Assembly (NCBI GenBank): GCA_002753225.1
Contig: PDZS01000015.1
Span: 1-27,222 of the forward strand
Source: Deltaproteobacteria bacterium YD0425bin51
GTDB lineage: Bacteria; Desulfobacterota; Desulfobacteria; Desulfobacterales; YD0425bin51
DNA: 27,222 nucleotides
Reading direction: 5' to 3'
The stretch's first letter is position 1. Every line of letters begins with the position of its first letter. The position numbers and the translations under genes were made by a program. Under the pieces are notes generated by a model. That model did no database searches, was not told the origin of the DNA, and was given only the letters and a program-made list of their open reading frames with translations. This document shows positions 17,868 through 23,753 of this stretch, piece by piece.

Positions 17868-17941
17868 GCGCCTGTAGCTCAGCTGGATAGAGCAACGGAC
17901 TTCTAATCCGTAGGTCGCACGTTCGAGTCGTGCCAGGCGCG
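17868..17941 (+). tRNA. tRNA-Arg (anticodon TCT)
   Basis: A perfect cloverleaf. The acceptor stem is GCGCCTG/CAGGCGC, the D-stem GCTC/GAGC and the anticodon stem ACGGA/TCCGT with loop CTTCTAA (anticodon TCT). The T-stem is GCACG/CGTGC with loop TTCGAGT. 74 nt, no encoded CCA. Confidence 0.9.
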
Positions 17942-17953
17942 CTTACAAAATCA

Positions 17954-17988
17954 AGGGTTTACAGAATGTAATCTGTAAACCTTTTTTG
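17954..17988 (+). terminator. Rho-independent terminator downstream of tRNA-Arg
   Basis: A GGGTTTACAG - loop (aatgtaat) - CTGTAAACC stem followed by TTTTTT. Confidence 0.65.
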
Positions 17989-18200
17989 CTTTAGACAATT
18001 TAATCCTGCCATAGCTCCAATTGTTTAGTAATAACATTATAATTATCTTTAACTTTACATCATCAATTAAATTGTCTAACATATTTATTGTCCGCTATAT
18101 TTTATACCCTACATATTTAACAATATCAACTTTAAAGATAGAAATAAATCCGATAAACCATTATGTTGATCTAAATAGAAAGACCGGAAATTAGCTCTAA

Positions 18201-18262
18201 AAAAAGCCCCCAATAGAAAAATATGCAGTAGTTTCCTATTTTTTGTATTGGGGGCTTTTACA
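18201..18262. terminator. Long GC-clamped hairpin flanked by an A-tract and a T-tract (bidirectional terminator-like, with no obvious gene to terminate)
   Basis: aaaaaGCCCCCAATAGAAAAATA-tgcagtagtttcc-TATTTTTTGTATTGGGGGCtttt forms a 10-bp perfect GC-rich stem extended to about 18 bp with one mismatch. The extended-stem loop is 13 nt. Confidence 0.5.
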
Positions 18263-21001: not shown

Positions 21002-21003
21002 TT

Positions 21004-22512
21004 ATGAAAAAAGAAAAATGGAACAATAATCATTTTCACATTAAAGTTCCTAACTCTTTAAATTCCATACCAATTGTACAGTCATTTATCAAAAGTTGTG
21101 CTTTGATAATGGATTTTAAGGAACCAGAATTGACTCATTTGGAAATTGTTGCTGAGGAACTAAGCACTAATATTCTTCAACATGCTTACAGATCTGATGA
21201 ATTGGCTAACTTCACCATTGATTGCATACTTAACGTAGATCAGCTGGAAATTATTTTTCGAGATCAAGGACGTCCATTTGATCCTGAGCATTTGCCAGAT
21301 TTTTCGGGTATTGATCCGTCAACTCTTGATGCTCCTGCTGGTTTAGGACTCTATCTTTCTGCCCGTCTCGTGGATCTATTTAATGCAAGAAATCTAGGCT
21401 CCATGGGGAAAGAGATTCGCCTCATTAAAAGGCTTAAAGGCTCTTGGCAATTATCAAAAGAACCTGATGGTTTCCGTCAGATACAGACTTTATATCGCAA
21501 GGAAGATTTTGATATGGTGCAGGTTCGTTCTATGCGTCCTGAAGAAGCTATACAGGTTTCGAGGTTAATTTATGATGTCTATCACTATACCTATATGTCA
21601 GAAATCCCTTATAATCCACATAGACTTAGACAACTGCAAGAAGATGGACGTCTTTACTCCTTTGTAGCAGTTTTGGGAAATGGAGTTGTCGCATCTCATG
21701 TTGCCCTTCAGATTTCACCTGATATGCCAAGACTTGGAGAATATTGTCTTGCCGCTACTTTACCAGAAGCAAGAGGTTATAAATTGGCTGAAAAGGTTGG
21801 TTTAGCTCTTTTAGAGACTGTTATGGGGTTGGGGATAACTGGACTTTATGCTAATTTCACAACAGTCCATACAATTTCACAGCGAAAAAGACAGGGACTT
21901 GGAACTGCTGTAGGATTCTTGTTGGCTCGAAGTCCTGAAACTCTTCAAATGAAAGATATTCTTGAAACAGCCCCACAGAGAGTTTCCACTTTATTGATGT
22001 TTCAGAGCTTAGTTGAACGTGAACCTGTTATCGTATATATTCCTGAACAACATAGAGATTTTATATCTGATATATATTGCCGTTGTAAACTTCCTGTGAA
22101 ATTTGATACTAAAGTTACCGATCTTCCAGATATTAATAGCCAATTGGAGATTTTAATTGAGAAGGAGCGTAATATTGCTAAATTATCGGTGATAGAAGCT
22201 GGGAGGGATTTATTGCCTCAGATCAAGGAACGCCTTTTCGGCTTGCGTCTGAATAATACTTCGGTAGTTTTCTCTTTTTTGAACCTTATGGATCCCCATA
22301 CTCCAAAAGTAGCAGCTATACTTGAAGAAATGGGATTTTTTATAACTGGAGTTTTGCCTTTAGGGATAGGTATTAATGATGCATTGCTGATGACATGTCT
22401 TATTAACTGCGCTCTGGATTATGACAAGATTGAACTTTTTGACAAAGAAAGTAAAGATCTTCTTAATTATGTTCGAAGACAAGATCCTTCTTTACCAAAG
22501 CTATTATTATGA
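21004..22512 (+). CDS. Multidomain protein: RsbW/SpoIIAB-like HATPase (anti-sigma-factor kinase-like) N-terminal domain fused to GNAT-like acyltransferase domain(s)
   Basis: The start ATG is 2 nt after the upstream stop, giving translational coupling. The N-terminus has IVAEELSTNILQHAY and a G2-box-like GLGLYLSARLVDLF, as in HATPase_c_2. The middle has VQVRSMRPEEAIQVSRLIYDVYH...YSFVAVLGNGVVASHVAL...LPEARGYKLAEKVGLALLE, consistent with a GNAT fold and motif A. The C-terminal ~170 aa are unassigned and may be a second acyltransferase-like half. Confidence 0.5.
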   Translation: MKKEKWNNNHFHIKVPNSLNSIPIVQSFIKSCALIMDFKEPELTHLEIVAEELSTNILQHAYRSDELANFTIDCILNVDQLEIIFRDQGRPFDPEHLPDFSGIDPSTLDAPAGLGLYLSARLVDLFNARNLGSMGKEIRLIKRLKGSWQLSKEPDGFRQIQTLYRKEDFDMVQVRSMRPEEAIQVSRLIYDVYHYTYMSEIPYNPHRLRQLQEDGRLYSFVAVLGNGVVASHVALQISPDMPRLGEYCLAATLPEARGYKLAEKVGLALLETVMGLGITGLYANFTTVHTISQRKRQGLGTAVGFLLARSPETLQMKDILETAPQRVSTLLMFQSLVEREPVIVYIPEQHRDFISDIYCRCKLPVKFDTKVTDLPDINSQLEILIEKERNIAKLSVIEAGRDLLPQIKERLFGLRLNNTSVVFSFLNLMDPHTPKVAAILEEMGFFITGVLPLGIGINDALLMTCLINCALDYDKIELFDKESKDLLNYVRRQDPSLPKLLL

Positions 22513-22532
22513 ATGGAAAGGTAATATAGATT

Positions 22533-23753
22533 ATGTCTGGATTGTTAAGTGTATTTAGAGAACGTAATTATTCTTTTTTCTTTACCGGACAAGCTTTATC
22601 GTTTATCGGAAATTGGATGCAGAGTACCACATTTAACTGGCTTCTATATCAATTTACTGATTCGCCTTTCCTTCTGGGGTCTATGAGTGCTGCTATAAAC
22701 ATTCCATTACTAATTTTAATTCCATATGCTGGTTCTATGGTTGATAGATTTGACCATAGGAGACTACTTTTATTTTTACAGACAATCTTCATGATCCATG
22801 CTTCACTCCTTGGAGCGCTTGCTTATTTTGATTTATTGAATTTGACATTAATTGTTGCTATGGGATGCATTCAAAGTTTTTTAAATGCTTTCGATGGTCC
22901 TGCTAGGCAGGCTTTAGTTCCTCAATTGCTGAATGATCGCAGTAAAATGCCTGCAGCAATAGCACTTAACTCAGTAATGGTAAATACTACCCGTACTTTT
23001 GGACCTCCTTTAGCAGGTTGGATACTGACTAAAAACAGTTCTGTATCTTGCTTTCTACTAAATGCTTTAAGCTATTTTTTTATGTTATTAGCTTTGATGG
23101 CACTTCAATTCAGTAACTCTGATAATAAAGGCAAACATAGGGAATATACGAGTGCTTTAGATAATCTGCTGTTTATTGTTAGTCTCCCATCGCTGAGATA
23201 TCTGTTTATATCTTATATAGTTGTTGCTGTGGCAACAATGTCTGTTTATGTTCTGCTGCCAATCTGGTCTGCTGATATACTAAAAGCTGGTCCACAGGGA
23301 TTAGGTTTGATGATGGGAGGGATTGGAGCAGGGGCTTTACTTGGAGCTATTATTGTAGGTTCCCAAAGTAACCAAGTCCGTTTATGGCTATTATTTCGTT
23401 ATTCCTCTTTACTGCTGGGATTTGCTTTAATATTGATTTCTTCTATAAATGGTATTACCCCTATTATCATGGTTACTGTAATGCTAGGTATGGCATATAT
23501 AGGACAAAGTGTTGCTGCAAACACACTTCTTCAGATGAGTGTTGATGATTCTCGTCGCGGTGGCATCATGGCATTCTATCTACTTGTTGCATTTGGTTCT
23601 ATACCAGTTGGCAATGTTTTAGGTGGGTGGCTTGGACATATCATTGGATTGAAAGGTGCAGCTATGACAGCAGGTATAACAGTTTTGATCTCCATTTTTT
23701 TTCTTTGGAGAACTAGTAGCAGAGTTATGCAATTAGTATTCAAAGAAAACTGA
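22533..23753 (+). CDS. MFS transporter (EntS/MFS_3-like putative exporter)
   Basis: A 406-aa protein with ~12 hydrophobic segments. The N-terminal FFFTGQALSFIGNWMQ and the loop motif SMVDRFDHRRLL (the MFS D-R-x-x-R-R-like motif between TM2 and TM3). An RBS-like GGAAAGG lies upstream of the ATG. Confidence 0.8.
   Translation: MSGLLSVFRERNYSFFFTGQALSFIGNWMQSTTFNWLLYQFTDSPFLLGSMSAAINIPLLILIPYAGSMVDRFDHRRLLLFLQTIFMIHASLLGALAYFDLLNLTLIVAMGCIQSFLNAFDGPARQALVPQLLNDRSKMPAAIALNSVMVNTTRTFGPPLAGWILTKNSSVSCFLLNALSYFFMLLALMALQFSNSDNKGKHREYTSALDNLLFIVSLPSLRYLFISYIVVAVATMSVYVLLPIWSADILKAGPQGLGLMMGGIGAGALLGAIIVGSQSNQVRLWLLFRYSSLLLGFALILISSINGITPIIMVTVMLGMAYIGQSVAANTLLQMSVDDSRRGGIMAFYLLVAFGSIPVGNVLGGWLGHIIGLKGAAMTAGITVLISIFFLWRTSSRVMQLVFKEN

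Follow-up and report, generated by a model that had tools for sequence, protein, structure and literature searches.

RimK-family alpha-L-glutamate ligases (RimK, LysX, MptN and CofF) form amide bonds with an ATP-grasp domain and add glutamate to a C-terminal carboxylate. In the synthesis of N-acetylglutaminylglutamine amide, Ngg serves as a bifunctional enzyme that combines GNAT and ATP-grasp domains. As OlsH shows, GH3 enzymes of bacteria use ATP to produce N-acyl amino acids (PMC12493201). Related domains occur together in three adjacent full-length genes, I1 to I3 (18425-23753), in the 27,222-nucleotide stretch of DNA analysed here (the window), from a Desulfobacterales MAG with an AT-rich genome of 31.5% GC. 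We hold with good confidence that these genes are best explained as a horizontally acquired, largely but not fully ameliorated hybrid cassette, located at a lineage-specific synteny breakpoint. The type of event is ordinary, a genomic islet; the cargo is a rare, uncharacterised amide-ligase cassette. Like other ameliorating islets without mobility genes, the cassette combines atypical composition and codon usage, sharp compositional boundaries at gene edges, partial convergence of composition on the host, a patchy cross-phylum distribution and absence from the syntenic loci of relatives. It differs from typical islets in being a hybrid of two related systems, in its position immediately ahead of a native two-component operon, and in its weak compositional signal, which results from the far advanced amelioration.

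Table 1 Features of the cassette locus; z is the amino-acid-controlled GC3 deviation.
Feature	Position	Strand	Evidence or description	GC3	z	Assignment
Sigma-70-family factor gene	16811..17779	-	Pfam Sigma70_r2/r4; divergent from tRNA	0.211	1.4	native
tRNA-Arg(TCT)	17868..17942	+	ARAGORN and Rfam			native
tRNA's own intrinsic terminator	17953..17990	+	terminator scan; hairpin 17953-17984, 13-bp stem and T run			native
AT-rich spacer, unique part	17991..18424	.	without homolog in any fetched locus			
Orphan bidirectional terminator-like hairpin	18202..18259	.	A run before, T run after			
I1, RimK ATP-grasp and GH3 fusion	18425..21001	+	Pfam RimK, Rimk_N, GH3, GH3_M, GH3_C		6.8	probably acquired
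I2, HATPase_c_2 and GNAT protein	21004..22512	+	Pfam HATPase_c_2	0.262	5.3	probably acquired
I3, MFS_3 (EntS-like) transporter	22533..23753	+	Pfam MFS_3, 169 bits	0.265	3.5	probably acquired
Right junction gap	23754..23784	.	31 nt, I3 stop codon to RR start codon			
OmpR-type response regulator (RR)	23785..24477	+		0.186	-0.1	native
Histidine kinase (HK)	24481..26280	+		0.185	0.9	native

The I1 reading frame opens at 18383, and its likely start codon lies 7 nt downstream of AAGGAGG. The N-terminal ~300 amino acids form a RimK-family ATP-grasp ligase and the C-terminal ~520 a GH3 acyl-acid amido synthetase. The former part scores above the TIGR00768 family cut-off (192.7 against 143.4 bits), but I1 falls under every RimK-family equivalog cut-off (RimK 129 against 331, LysX 132 against 276) and, unlike these ligases, is fused to GH3. 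Residues ~340-872 match the N-terminal, middle and C-terminal GH3 domains of Pfam, and all three nucleotide-binding motifs of GH3 were found (TSGTTSNKLK, YGSSE and GLYRYNIQD). Against the OlsH equivalog model I1 scores just 69 bits, where the cut-off is 620; its RimK ATP-grasp domain is absent from OlsH and from plant GH3 enzymes, and the cassette encodes no OlsI-like partner. The architecture is rare: 12 full-length relatives were found among 5.8 billion proteins, and only 9 RimK-GH3 fusion clusters among 1.84 billion representatives. The closest relative, from Sporomusa malonica (Bacillota), is 68-69% identical. A separate, native RimK-like gene of the host (13540-14322) is just 31% identical to I1.

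I2 joins, in this order, an RsbW-like HATPase_c_2 kinase domain, a GNAT acyltransferase domain and a C-terminal alpha/beta region without family assignment in one protein of ~500 amino acids. The first domain resembles the RsbW/SpoIIAB partner-switching kinases in sequence (PDB profile match to RsbW 6m36, E 4e-14) and in fold, the AF2 model aligning with RsbW at TM 0.93-0.95 and also with many GNATs; the score against the RsbW equivalog cut-off is far below it (41 against 145 bits). Of the 14 members of the family, 13 gave GNAT matches, and the copy in the window matches weakly (E 0.06). I2 has 14 relatives; identity is 58-68% for those on Ca. Competibacteraceae-type contigs and 48% for Ca. 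Riflebacteria. In Competibacteraceae loci a STAS (RsbV-like) gene adjoins the I2 homolog; the window holds neither a STAS gene near I2 nor a sigma factor that could be tied to I2 as its target. I3 shares 59% identity with the MFS_3 protein from the Competibacteraceae cassette and 44% with its counterpart in locus L087, and is presumably the exporter of the cassette. A native MFS gene follows the tRNA in some relatives; I3 is unrelated to it.

Domain homology and gene neighbourhood suggest a putative scheme for I1 to I3. The GH3 domain would adenylate a carboxylic acid and couple an amino acid to it, after which the RimK ATP-grasp domain would place glutamate, or another amino acid, on the C-terminal carboxylate so formed. 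The GNAT domain may N-acylate or N-acetylate the product or a precursor under the control of the RsbW-like ATPase domain, and the MFS_3 protein would export the product. The pairing of a GNAT domain with a RimK-like ATP-grasp ligase presumably parallels Ngg in building a small N-acylated peptide, a likeness that we take as a lead only. I1 matches TIGR03103 weakly (E 2.7e-6, 26 bits against a cut-off of 569), and the cassette differs from Ngg in how its domains are arranged, in having GH3 and MFS_3 and in lacking an AsnO-like amidotransferase.

The two sides of the cassette belong to different conserved neighbourhoods. The sigma factor on the left heads a block conserved across Desulfobacterales (sigma, TPR, DUF4292, RimK-like, AbpE, HIT, MutS, amidase); its orthologs are 66-79% identical in 80 species and keep the downstream synteny. 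The tRNA-Arg gene stands in the same place in 55 of the 60 relatives scanned. On the right, homologs of HK number in the thousands; in the best 120, full-length identity is 47-52%, and all named ones among them are from Desulfobacterales, Desulfobacteria or Thermodesulfobacteriota. RR-HK stands alone in relatives, behind an upstream region of its own that spans 163-499 nt; the neighbour is divergent in 25 of 27 cases. Comparison at the tRNA locus, which the preliminary description had proposed as a check, showed that the operon is not conserved there: in 80 Desulfobacterales loci with the sigma-factor ortholog and tRNA-Arg, I1, I2 and I3 are absent throughout. They are likewise missing from 80 metagenome loci and two genomes that have an orthologous RR-HK pair. 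Besides the source, one sibling MAG is the only Desulfobacterales carrier, with a copy 100% identical, and its 12.4-kb contig bears I2 and HK together. That MAG aside, searches of billions of proteins gave no homolog of either I1 or I2 from Thermodesulfobacteriota; the named relatives of the cassette are Sporomusa (Bacillota), Ca. Competibacteraceae/Contendobacter (Gammaproteobacteria) and Ca. Riflebacteria. The locus is a lineage-variable synteny breakpoint, with the sigma/tRNA-Arg block on one side and the native RR-HK on the other. No empty site was seen among the relatives compared, the nearest of which share ~79% (sigma) and 52% (HK) protein identity.

At the right junction the gap contains neither a terminator nor a plus-strand promoter-like site. 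The gaps between I1, I2, I3, RR and HK (2, 20, 31 and 3 nt) are tight and operon-like. Since just 31 nt separate the end of the cassette from the start of RR, the five genes probably form one transcription unit, in which RR-HK is co-transcribed with the cassette. At the left, the gene-free stretch between tRNA and I1 (17943-18424) measures 482 nt at 25% GC, in agreement with the ~480-nt AT-rich spacer first described, and contains just short, low-complexity ORFs. The orphan terminator-like hairpin noted in it is present as well, 165 nt ahead of the start codon of I1; its two 20-nt arms show 95% complementarity (dG -26.4 kcal/mol, z -4.5; 0 of 200 shuffles folded as well). The spacer also contains two promoter-like sites (18054-18101) and a 14-nt inverted repeat without mismatches (17991-18004 / 18066-18079). 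The tRNA 3' flank, ACAAAATCAAGGGTTT..., is common to Desulfotignum locus L067, and an analogous hairpin follows the tRNA in many relatives. The acquired DNA must have its left junction within the unique part of the spacer. In the alignment the 3' CCA of the tRNA is not encoded, CTT standing where all relatives have CCA.

Proximity to a tRNA gene had led to the proposal of tRNA-targeted integration. In the classic form of such an event, an integrase-bearing element would have entered the 3' end of tRNA-Arg(TCT), leaving its cargo after the integrase and att repeats were deleted or decayed. The cassette is indeed the first coding DNA downstream of the tRNA, the region beyond it varies between Desulfobacterales lineages, the transfer seems old enough for an att site to have decayed, and the orphan terminator and inverted repeat could be relics of a lost element. 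As in tRNA-associated islands, ICEs and prophages, accessory cargo of deviant GC that relatives lack lies beside a tRNA gene. Unlike islands with integrase and att sites, however, the cassette is only 5.3 kb long, has no mobility genes and, as had been stated from the start, no integrase or att-type direct repeat. No integrase-like ORF was found in the window or in the 3.8 kb past it, and the block is not flanked by direct repeats. A search for copies of the terminal 45 nt of tRNA plus flank, with mismatches allowed, gave 0 matches against ~1.4 expected by chance. Because the tRNA 3' flank and terminator are native, undisturbed and shared with Desulfotignum, recombination did not take place inside the tRNA 3' end. 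The DNA past the tRNA in 43 relatives consists of ordinary chromosomal genes, without mobile elements or integrase matches, and the right end of the cassette adjoins a native operon across a short gap. Nothing points to site-specific integration into tRNA-Arg, which is not supported and which we regard as unlikely.

The GC-enriched block is real and far weaker than first stated. The preliminary description had set 40-45% GC against flanks of 20-30%; the enrichment was confirmed, its size was not, as the genes have 36-37% against 30.4 +/- 1.1% in native windows. The 60-mer counts behind those figures were correct (0.433, 0.217 and 0.200); the three samples are extremes relative to whole-gene GC. 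The block 18425-23753 has a GC content of 0.366 against 0.304 +/- 0.011 (maximum 0.329) in 145 equal-length native windows, hence a step of ~6 GC points or ~5.6 sd. Gene by gene, GC is ~0.361, 0.371 and 0.371 in I1, I2 and I3 against 0.237-0.342 in the 19 other window genes, and GC3 is ~0.25-0.265, with 0.253 for I1, against 0.136-0.234 (native ~0.17), which places the three genes about 9 points above native at the third codon position. The tetranucleotide distance of the block to the rest of the window was 0.0307 against 0.0129 +/- 0.0020 for native segments. As described initially, the block covers the ligase-fusion, HATPase/GNAT and MFS genes, and the excess stops at the MFS/response-regulator boundary: among the five plus-strand genes, the best GC3 change point falls at 23790-23832 (support interval 23324-24045).

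I1 to I3 might instead be native, their GC reflecting protein composition (such as that of a hydrophobic transporter), expression-tied codon selection or local mutational heterogeneity. The step is small, GC1 and GC2 are partly set by amino-acid content, and the GC-normalised dinucleotide signature of the block is not exceptional (51.9 against 38.5 +/- 7.9). When synonymous codons were assigned at native frequencies to an unchanged amino-acid sequence, with a native background of just ~25 usable host genes, the profile did not become uniform: all three genes still deviated (Table 1), and the 19 other genes all had |z| <= 2.6. GC3 was raised in 14 of 18 amino-acid families. RR and HK, on the same strand and probably the same transcript, are yet fully native in GC3. 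Together with the lack of Thermodesulfobacteriota homologs of I1 and I2 outside the sibling MAG and with 0 of 160 related loci carrying the cassette, these results make a native origin very improbable. The excess involves both G- and C-ending codons, unlike a bias toward a few preferred codons. An assembly or binning artefact is hardly credible: chimeric joins do occur in metagenome assemblies, and the source is a MAG, but the block lies inside a 183-kb contig, between flanks of native sequence and composition, its GC of 36-37% is far nearer to that of the host than to that of any known homolog (47-64%), its junctions have no repeats, its spacing is operon-like, and a second MAG's contig links I2 to the native HK.

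Horizontal acquisition of the three-gene core, as originally suggested, is well supported by deviant GC3, lack of synteny and nearest relatives in other phyla with higher-GC genomes. The homologous genes have GC3 values of 0.50-0.82 in genomes of 46-60% GC, which suggests donors of higher GC; the residual excess of I1 to I3 would be a leftover from them. As the nearest homologs are just 59-69% identical, the real donor or donors are unsampled. There are two partner clades, A and B, which are just 23-27% identical to each other. In the window the ligase is of clade B (68% to Sporomusa), and both its partner (63-68%) and the MFS protein (59%) are of clade A. Judging from these sequences, the cassette appears to be a hybrid of a Sporomusa-type ligase with a Competibacteraceae-type HATPase/GNAT protein and MFS_3. 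The GC3 of I1 to I3 lies ~70-85% along the path from the values of the relatives to that of the host; the genes thus look ~70-85% ameliorated, and the transfer from other bacterial lineages probably took place long ago. Their proteins contain more FYMINK residues than their homologs; compared with native proteins, Lys/Asn/Ile-type residues are scarcer, with Lys at 4.9% against 10.1%.

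The window has a GC content of 31.5% overall. Sixteen minus-strand genes lie to the left of tRNA-Arg(TCT) and five tightly spaced plus-strand genes lie to its right. The latter encode a RimK-GH3 fusion protein (I1), a HATPase_c_2/GNAT protein (I2) and an MFS_3 transporter (I3), which together form the cassette studied here, followed by a response regulator (RR) and a histidine kinase (HK). A 482-nt spacer with 25% GC separates the tRNA from I1, for which the public annotation uses the same start codon as ours. Whole-gene GC is 0.361, 0.371 and 0.371 for I1, I2 and I3, respectively, and 0.237–0.342 for all other window genes; the cassette as a block has 0.366, compared to 0.304 ± 0.011 (maximum 0.329) in 145 native windows of equal length. 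A GC island is thus present where the preliminary description had placed it, but its contrast is about 6 GC points and not 15–20. The three 60-mers sampled in that description had been counted correctly (0.433, 0.217 and 0.200 GC) and are extreme samples. Its qualitative call was right, while the magnitude was overstated and the inference that the block had integrated at the tRNA is not supported.

Features of the cassette, the spacer and the surrounding native genes (window coordinates)
Feature	Position	Strand	Remarks
Caspase-domain protein gene	119–1765	−	548 aa
RimK-like ATP-grasp gene	13540–14322	−	260 aa; between the DUF4292 and AbpE-like genes
tRNA-Arg(TCT)	17868–17942		Called by ARAGORN and Rfam; sole tRNA in the window
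tRNA-Arg 3' flank and terminator hairpin	17953–17990		Native
Spacer beyond the native terminator	17991–18424
Perfect 14-nt inverted repeat	17991–18004 / 18066–18079		TTAGACAATTTAAT / ATTAAATTGTCTAA
Low-complexity ORF	18021–18194		57 aa; ends 8 nt before the orphan hairpin
Two promoter-like sites	18054–18101
Orphan hairpin	18202–18259		dG −26.4 kcal/mol, z −4.5; A run before, T run after (to 18262)
I1 (RimK-GH3 fusion)	18425–21001	+	ORF open from 18383; ATG at 18425 has AAGGAGG 7 nt upstream
I2 (HATPase_c_2/GNAT)	21004–22512	+
I3 (MFS_3)	22533–23753	+
RR (response regulator)	23785–24477	+
HK (histidine kinase)	24481–26280	+

The third codon positions of the cassette genes are richer in GC (GC3 0.255–0.265) than those of the remaining window genes (0.136–0.234). 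As a control, each protein sequence was fixed and synonymous codons were sampled according to their frequencies in the other native genes. Against this background, which consists of only about 25 genes, the GC3 excess corresponds to z = 6.8 for I1, 5.3 for I2 and 3.5 for I3, and none of the 19 other genes exceeds |z| = 2.6. RR (z = −0.1) and HK (z = 0.9) show no such excess, although they follow the cassette directly on the same strand. The excess involves both G- and C-ending codons, in 14 of the 18 codon families. A uniform GC3 profile after control for amino acid composition would have spoken against acquisition; this argument fails, since I1–I3 remain deviant with the protein sequence held fixed. 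A third-position likelihood change-point scan over the five plus-strand genes peaks at 23790–23832, the I3/RR junction. In tetranucleotide usage the cassette lies at a distance of 0.0307 from the remainder of the window, compared to 0.0129 ± 0.0020 for native segments; its dinucleotide signature, normalised for GC, is unexceptional. The cassette proteins are also poor in lysine (4.9% vs 10.1%), asparagine and glutamate, and rich in leucine, glycine, proline, arginine and alanine.

The left flank of the cassette is native. Using the sigma-70-family gene to the left of tRNA-Arg as query, we retrieved 80 loci from different Desulfobacterales species at 66–79% identity, none closer than 79%. The order sigma, TPR, DUF4292, RimK-like, AbpE, HIT, MutS and amidase is syntenic across these loci. 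Of 60 loci scanned for the tRNA, 55 have tRNA-Arg(TCT) upstream of sigma and in divergent orientation. The 3' flank of the tRNA and its terminator hairpin are native as well: ACAAAATCAAGGGTTT is shared with a Desulfotignum locus, and a hairpin analogous to the tRNA-Arg terminator is present in many relatives. I1, I2, I3, RR and HK are all absent from the 80 sigma/tRNA-Arg loci. The RimK-like ATP-grasp gene of this conserved block has counterparts of 49–62% identity in many relatives; its identity to the ATP-grasp part of I1 is just 31%.

RR and HK form a second native block. HK has thousands of homologs; the best 120 are full-length matches of 47–52% identity, and all those named among them belong to Desulfobacterales, Desulfobacteria or Thermodesulfobacteriota. 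In one complete Desulfobacterales chromosome RR-HK is a free-standing pair. Neither I1–I3 nor the tRNA occurs in any of 80 metagenome loci with HK orthologs, so that the operon is not conserved at this locus in either comparison (I1–I3 in 0/80 sigma and 0/80 RR-HK loci). Twenty-seven of these loci extend far enough upstream to show the region before RR, which measures 163–499 nt (median 292); the next gene is divergently oriented in 25 of them. The corresponding gap in the window, between the I3 stop and the RR start, is only 31 nt. When an empty site was sought in metagenomes by means of the native HK, no relative above 52% identity was found. On the basis of the sigma and RR-HK comparisons, the cassette sits between two native blocks that no sampled relative has side by side. 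Its position is promoter-proximal with respect to RR-HK, and it was apparently inserted between the native two-component operon and its ancestral upstream region.

The distribution of the three genes is sparse. Among 5.8 billion proteins, only 12 are full-length relatives of I1, and an exhaustive HMMER scan of 1.84 billion representatives found the RimK-GH3 fusion architecture in just 9 clusters, while standalone GH3 and RimK relatives were abundant in the same scan. The nearest I1 relative (69%) is from Sporomusa malonica, a Negativicute of the Bacillota, and a protein 100% identical to I1 is encoded on a 183-kb contig (JADGCY010000009.1) of a Desulfobacterales MAG (GCA_015228685.1). Fourteen relatives of I2 were found. 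One is a 100% identical fragment from a second Desulfobacterales MAG (the sibling MAG); others are 58–68% identical, in contigs including Ca. Competibacteraceae/Contendobacter (Gammaproteobacteria), or 48% identical, in Ca. Riflebacteria. The sibling MAG is the only Desulfobacterales carrier besides the source; I2 and HK each match a contig of 12,389 nt there, from which we infer that both lie on one contig. Searches of plasmid and phage collections with the cassette gave no full-length protein match and no DNA match.

A recurrent module is apparent in the neighbourhoods of the homologs. In Sporomusa and in two further loci (L005 and L093), a HATPase_c_2 protein of ~490–500 aa is encoded directly before the fusion gene. 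The Competibacteraceae loci have the order HATPase/GNAT, standalone GH3, a 453-aa protein outside the known families and MFS_3; in one locus (L087) a GlnA-like ligase takes the place of GH3. The 453-aa protein, which matches no Pfam family, is kept between ligase and MFS_3 (L088, 9505–10866; L087, 4958–6319, minus strand) and is missing from the window cassette. By pairwise identity the HATPase/GNAT partners fall into two clades, with only 23–27% identity between them. The window combines a fusion-type ligase (68% to Sporomusa) with a partner (63–68%) and an MFS_3 (59%) of the other clade, and its gene order ligase, partner, MFS is unique among the loci compared. Since parts of both clades are combined in an order seen nowhere else, the cassette is best described as a hybrid of two related systems. 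The similar GC3 of all three genes indicates that it probably arrived as one piece, or that its pieces have spent comparable periods in the host.

The host lineage itself shows a strong drift toward AT. RR and HK have a GC3 of 0.185 compared to 0.34–0.54 in their orthologs, and native window genes in general have about 0.17, compared to 0.34–0.54 for orthologs in other Desulfobacterales (two loci, L091 and L092, compared). The native proteins of the window are rich in FYMINK residues, with 0.40 in HK. The homologs of the cassette genes in relatives have a GC3 of 0.50–0.82, in genomes of 46–60% GC. With a GC3 of 0.26 in the window and about 0.17 in the host, the cassette is roughly 70–85% ameliorated. 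Its proteins contain 0.27–0.33 FYMINK residues versus 0.16–0.26 in the homologs, and this shift toward AT-rich residues, together with the amelioration, indicates that the transfer is old. Horizontal acquisition, as proposed in the preliminary description, is upheld by a deviant GC3, by absence from the syntenic loci and by nearest homologs that are patchily spread in distant taxa. An old horizontal transfer of a rare hybrid three-gene set explains the cassette, which is a real but modest compositional islet. As such, the island is a routine example of old transfer; it illustrates that a transfer ameliorated by 70–85% is still detectable by amino-acid-controlled GC3 in a strongly AT-drifted genome.

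The route by which the cassette entered is a separate matter. Integration at tRNA-Arg had been proposed from the proximity of the two, and the tRNA does adjoin the cassette, as in a tRNA island. None of the window genes contains a recombinase or integrase Pfam domain. A phmmer search with a genuine integrase, a single query of limited sensitivity, gave no hit, either in the window and a further 3.8 kb translated in six frames or among the 313 ORFs that lie beyond the tRNA in 43 relatives. The last 45 nt of tRNA-Arg and its flank, searched as 11–21-mers with 0–3 mismatches, gave 0 matches, compared to about 1.4 expected by chance, and no direct repeats bracketing the block were found. These wider searches agree with the initial failure to find an integrase or a repeat. 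The native terminator behind the tRNA is intact. The DNA beyond the tRNA varies among relatives, the commonest gene cluster occurring in only 8 of 43 loci, and encodes SPFH, MFS, NagZ-like, MotA/B-like, HDOD and DisA_N proteins. Since these searches found neither an integrase nor repeats and the content beyond the tRNA is ordinary, the tRNA marks a rearrangement-prone edge of a conserved block and is not a demonstrated att site. Its adjacency to the cassette is best read as a coincidence with a synteny breakpoint. Three ORF clusters beside the tRNA of relatives (C0, C3 and C9) were considered as integrases and rejected; they include SPFH/zinc-ribbon, MFS transporter and NagZ-like proteins, among others. 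The possibility that I3 is the native MFS gene found behind the tRNA of four relatives was likewise ruled out.

The tRNA gene itself varies. In the window the 3' CCA is not encoded (...GCGCG-CTT at 17940–17946), compared to CCA in all ~75 relatives, and the tRNA would depend on a CCA-adding enzyme. In a Desulfobacterales MAG (locus L044, JAOZLU010000285.1, 3423–3734, minus strand), tRNA-Arg(TCT) is split into a 5' part (3734–3699) and a 3' part (3464–3423) by an anticodon-loop insert of ~234 nt. The insert has a sub-threshold full-length match to RF00028 (21.7 bits, gathering 50; E 0.002) and probably represents a group I intron of this tRNA-Arg(UCU), which is orthologous to that of the window. 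In another locus (L047, JARRRC010000446.1, 2347–2393, minus strand) only the 3' 47 nt of tRNA-Arg remain beside sigma. Unrelated sequence stands in place of the 5' 30 nt, and no tRNA is called by ARAGORN; either the tRNA has been truncated or this piece was left behind by a rearrangement.

Past the native terminator, the spacer has no match in any fetched locus, and the left junction of the acquired DNA is somewhere within it. It includes an inverted repeat, two promoter-like sites, a short ORF and a stable hairpin; Rfam detected only the tRNA in the window and no known RNA family over the spacer or hairpin. The hairpin may serve as an insulator from tRNA read-through, may end a small transcript or may be a relic, and the region 17991–18262 as a whole may encode a small RNA of ~150 nt, act as an operator or represent the remains of a lost gene. 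A replication origin at the cumulative GC-skew minimum (~17750–18250, near 18000) was considered and rejected. The minimum falls at the point where gene orientation diverges and gives no evidence for an origin, because the skew tracks the coding strand and reverses at the minus-strand MCP gene.

I1 matches the N-terminal, middle and C-terminal GH3 Pfam domains with 203.3, 69.1 and 45.0 bits (cut-off 23.6). Its nucleotide-binding motifs TSGTTSNKLK, YGSSE and GLYRYNIQD are all present, the GH3 consensus being SSGTSxGxxK, YGSSE and GLYRYRLGD (PMC12493201). The bacterial GH3 enzyme OlsH uses ATP to make N-acyl ornithine (PMC12493201). I1 is not an equivalog of this lyso-ornithine lipid synthetase (69.2 bits, NF052613 cut-off 620), and the alpha/beta-hydrolase partner, OlsI, of the OlsH operon has no counterpart in the window. 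The N-terminal part of I1 exceeds the cut-off of the RimK family of alpha-L-glutamate ligases (TIGR00768, 192.7 bits, cut-off 143.4), also matches Pfam RimK and Rimk_N, and falls under every equivalog cut-off, including that of RimK proper, the ribosomal protein S6 glutamate ligase (128.9 bits, NF007764 cut-off 331). A different lipid-linked bacterial GH3 architecture, ~845-aa fusions of GH3 and fatty-acid hydroxylase (PF04116), was observed in JGI metagenomes (P0013–P0020).

In I2, the HATPase_c_2 domain is supported by Pfam (54.5 bits) and by PDB 6m36 (E 4e-14), and the AF2 model, of moderate quality (pLDDT 65.5), aligns to RsbW in Foldseek with TM 0.93–0.95. I2 nevertheless scores 41 bits against the RsbW equivalog cut-off of 145, and, unlike in RsbW-type partner switching, the window has no STAS gene; STAS is adjacent in L088–L090 only. 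The GNAT domain is weak in the window protein (E 0.06), while 13 of the 14 family members match Acetyltransf_1 (best 9e-8), and Foldseek gives many GNAT matches at TM ~0.6 for this model of moderate confidence. I3 is an EntS-like transporter of the MFS_3 family (169 bits, cut-off 27) but not EntS itself (94 vs 324 bits). Related loci add genes for fatty-acyl-AMP-ligase-like proteins, carrier proteins, further ATP-grasp ligases, patatin and MatE or ABC exporters. A literature search for RimK-GH3 or RsbW-GNAT fusions returned nothing relevant beyond the OlsH paper.

Judged by domains and neighbourhoods, the GH3 domain would form an ATP-dependent amide bond between an acyl group and an amino acid, and the RimK domain a second one by which glutamate extends the product. 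The GNAT domain would carry out N-acylation or N-acetylation, the RsbW-like module would act in regulation and I3 would export the product; two amide formations, acylation, regulation and export would be the most economical reading of the cassette. The five genes are separated by short gaps (2, 20, 31 and 3 nt) with no terminators in between, which suggests a single transcript from I1 to HK, and insertion ahead of the native RR-HK suggests regulatory capture. A bolder proposal, which we put forward tentatively and regard as rather unlikely in full, is a pathway without prior description. In it, the RimK-GH3 double ligase would make an N-acyl or aryl-acyl amino acid and lengthen it by glutamate, a GNAT gated by the RsbW-like ATPase would modify the product and MFS_3 would export or flip it; the cassette, promoter-proximal in the native RR-HK operon, would have become connected to a host two-component circuit in one event. 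If this were true, the product could be a new amino-lipid, signal molecule or chelator. The fusion, the RsbW-like/GNAT protein and MFS_3 form a very rare gene set without described function that recurs in at least four phyla, and it is in this uncharacterised cassette and its possible regulatory capture, more than in the island, that the interest of the locus mostly lies.

At the far left of the window, the caspase-domain gene had been considered as a highly expressed control (GroEL) for codon usage and was rejected once its product was identified. The protein carries caspase (Peptidase_C14) and Lcl_C domains, and its gene neighbours encode a hybrid histidine kinase, a CheC/CheX-like phosphatase, a single-domain response regulator and a GAF/HD-GYP-type protein; the group as a whole resembles a signalling cluster.
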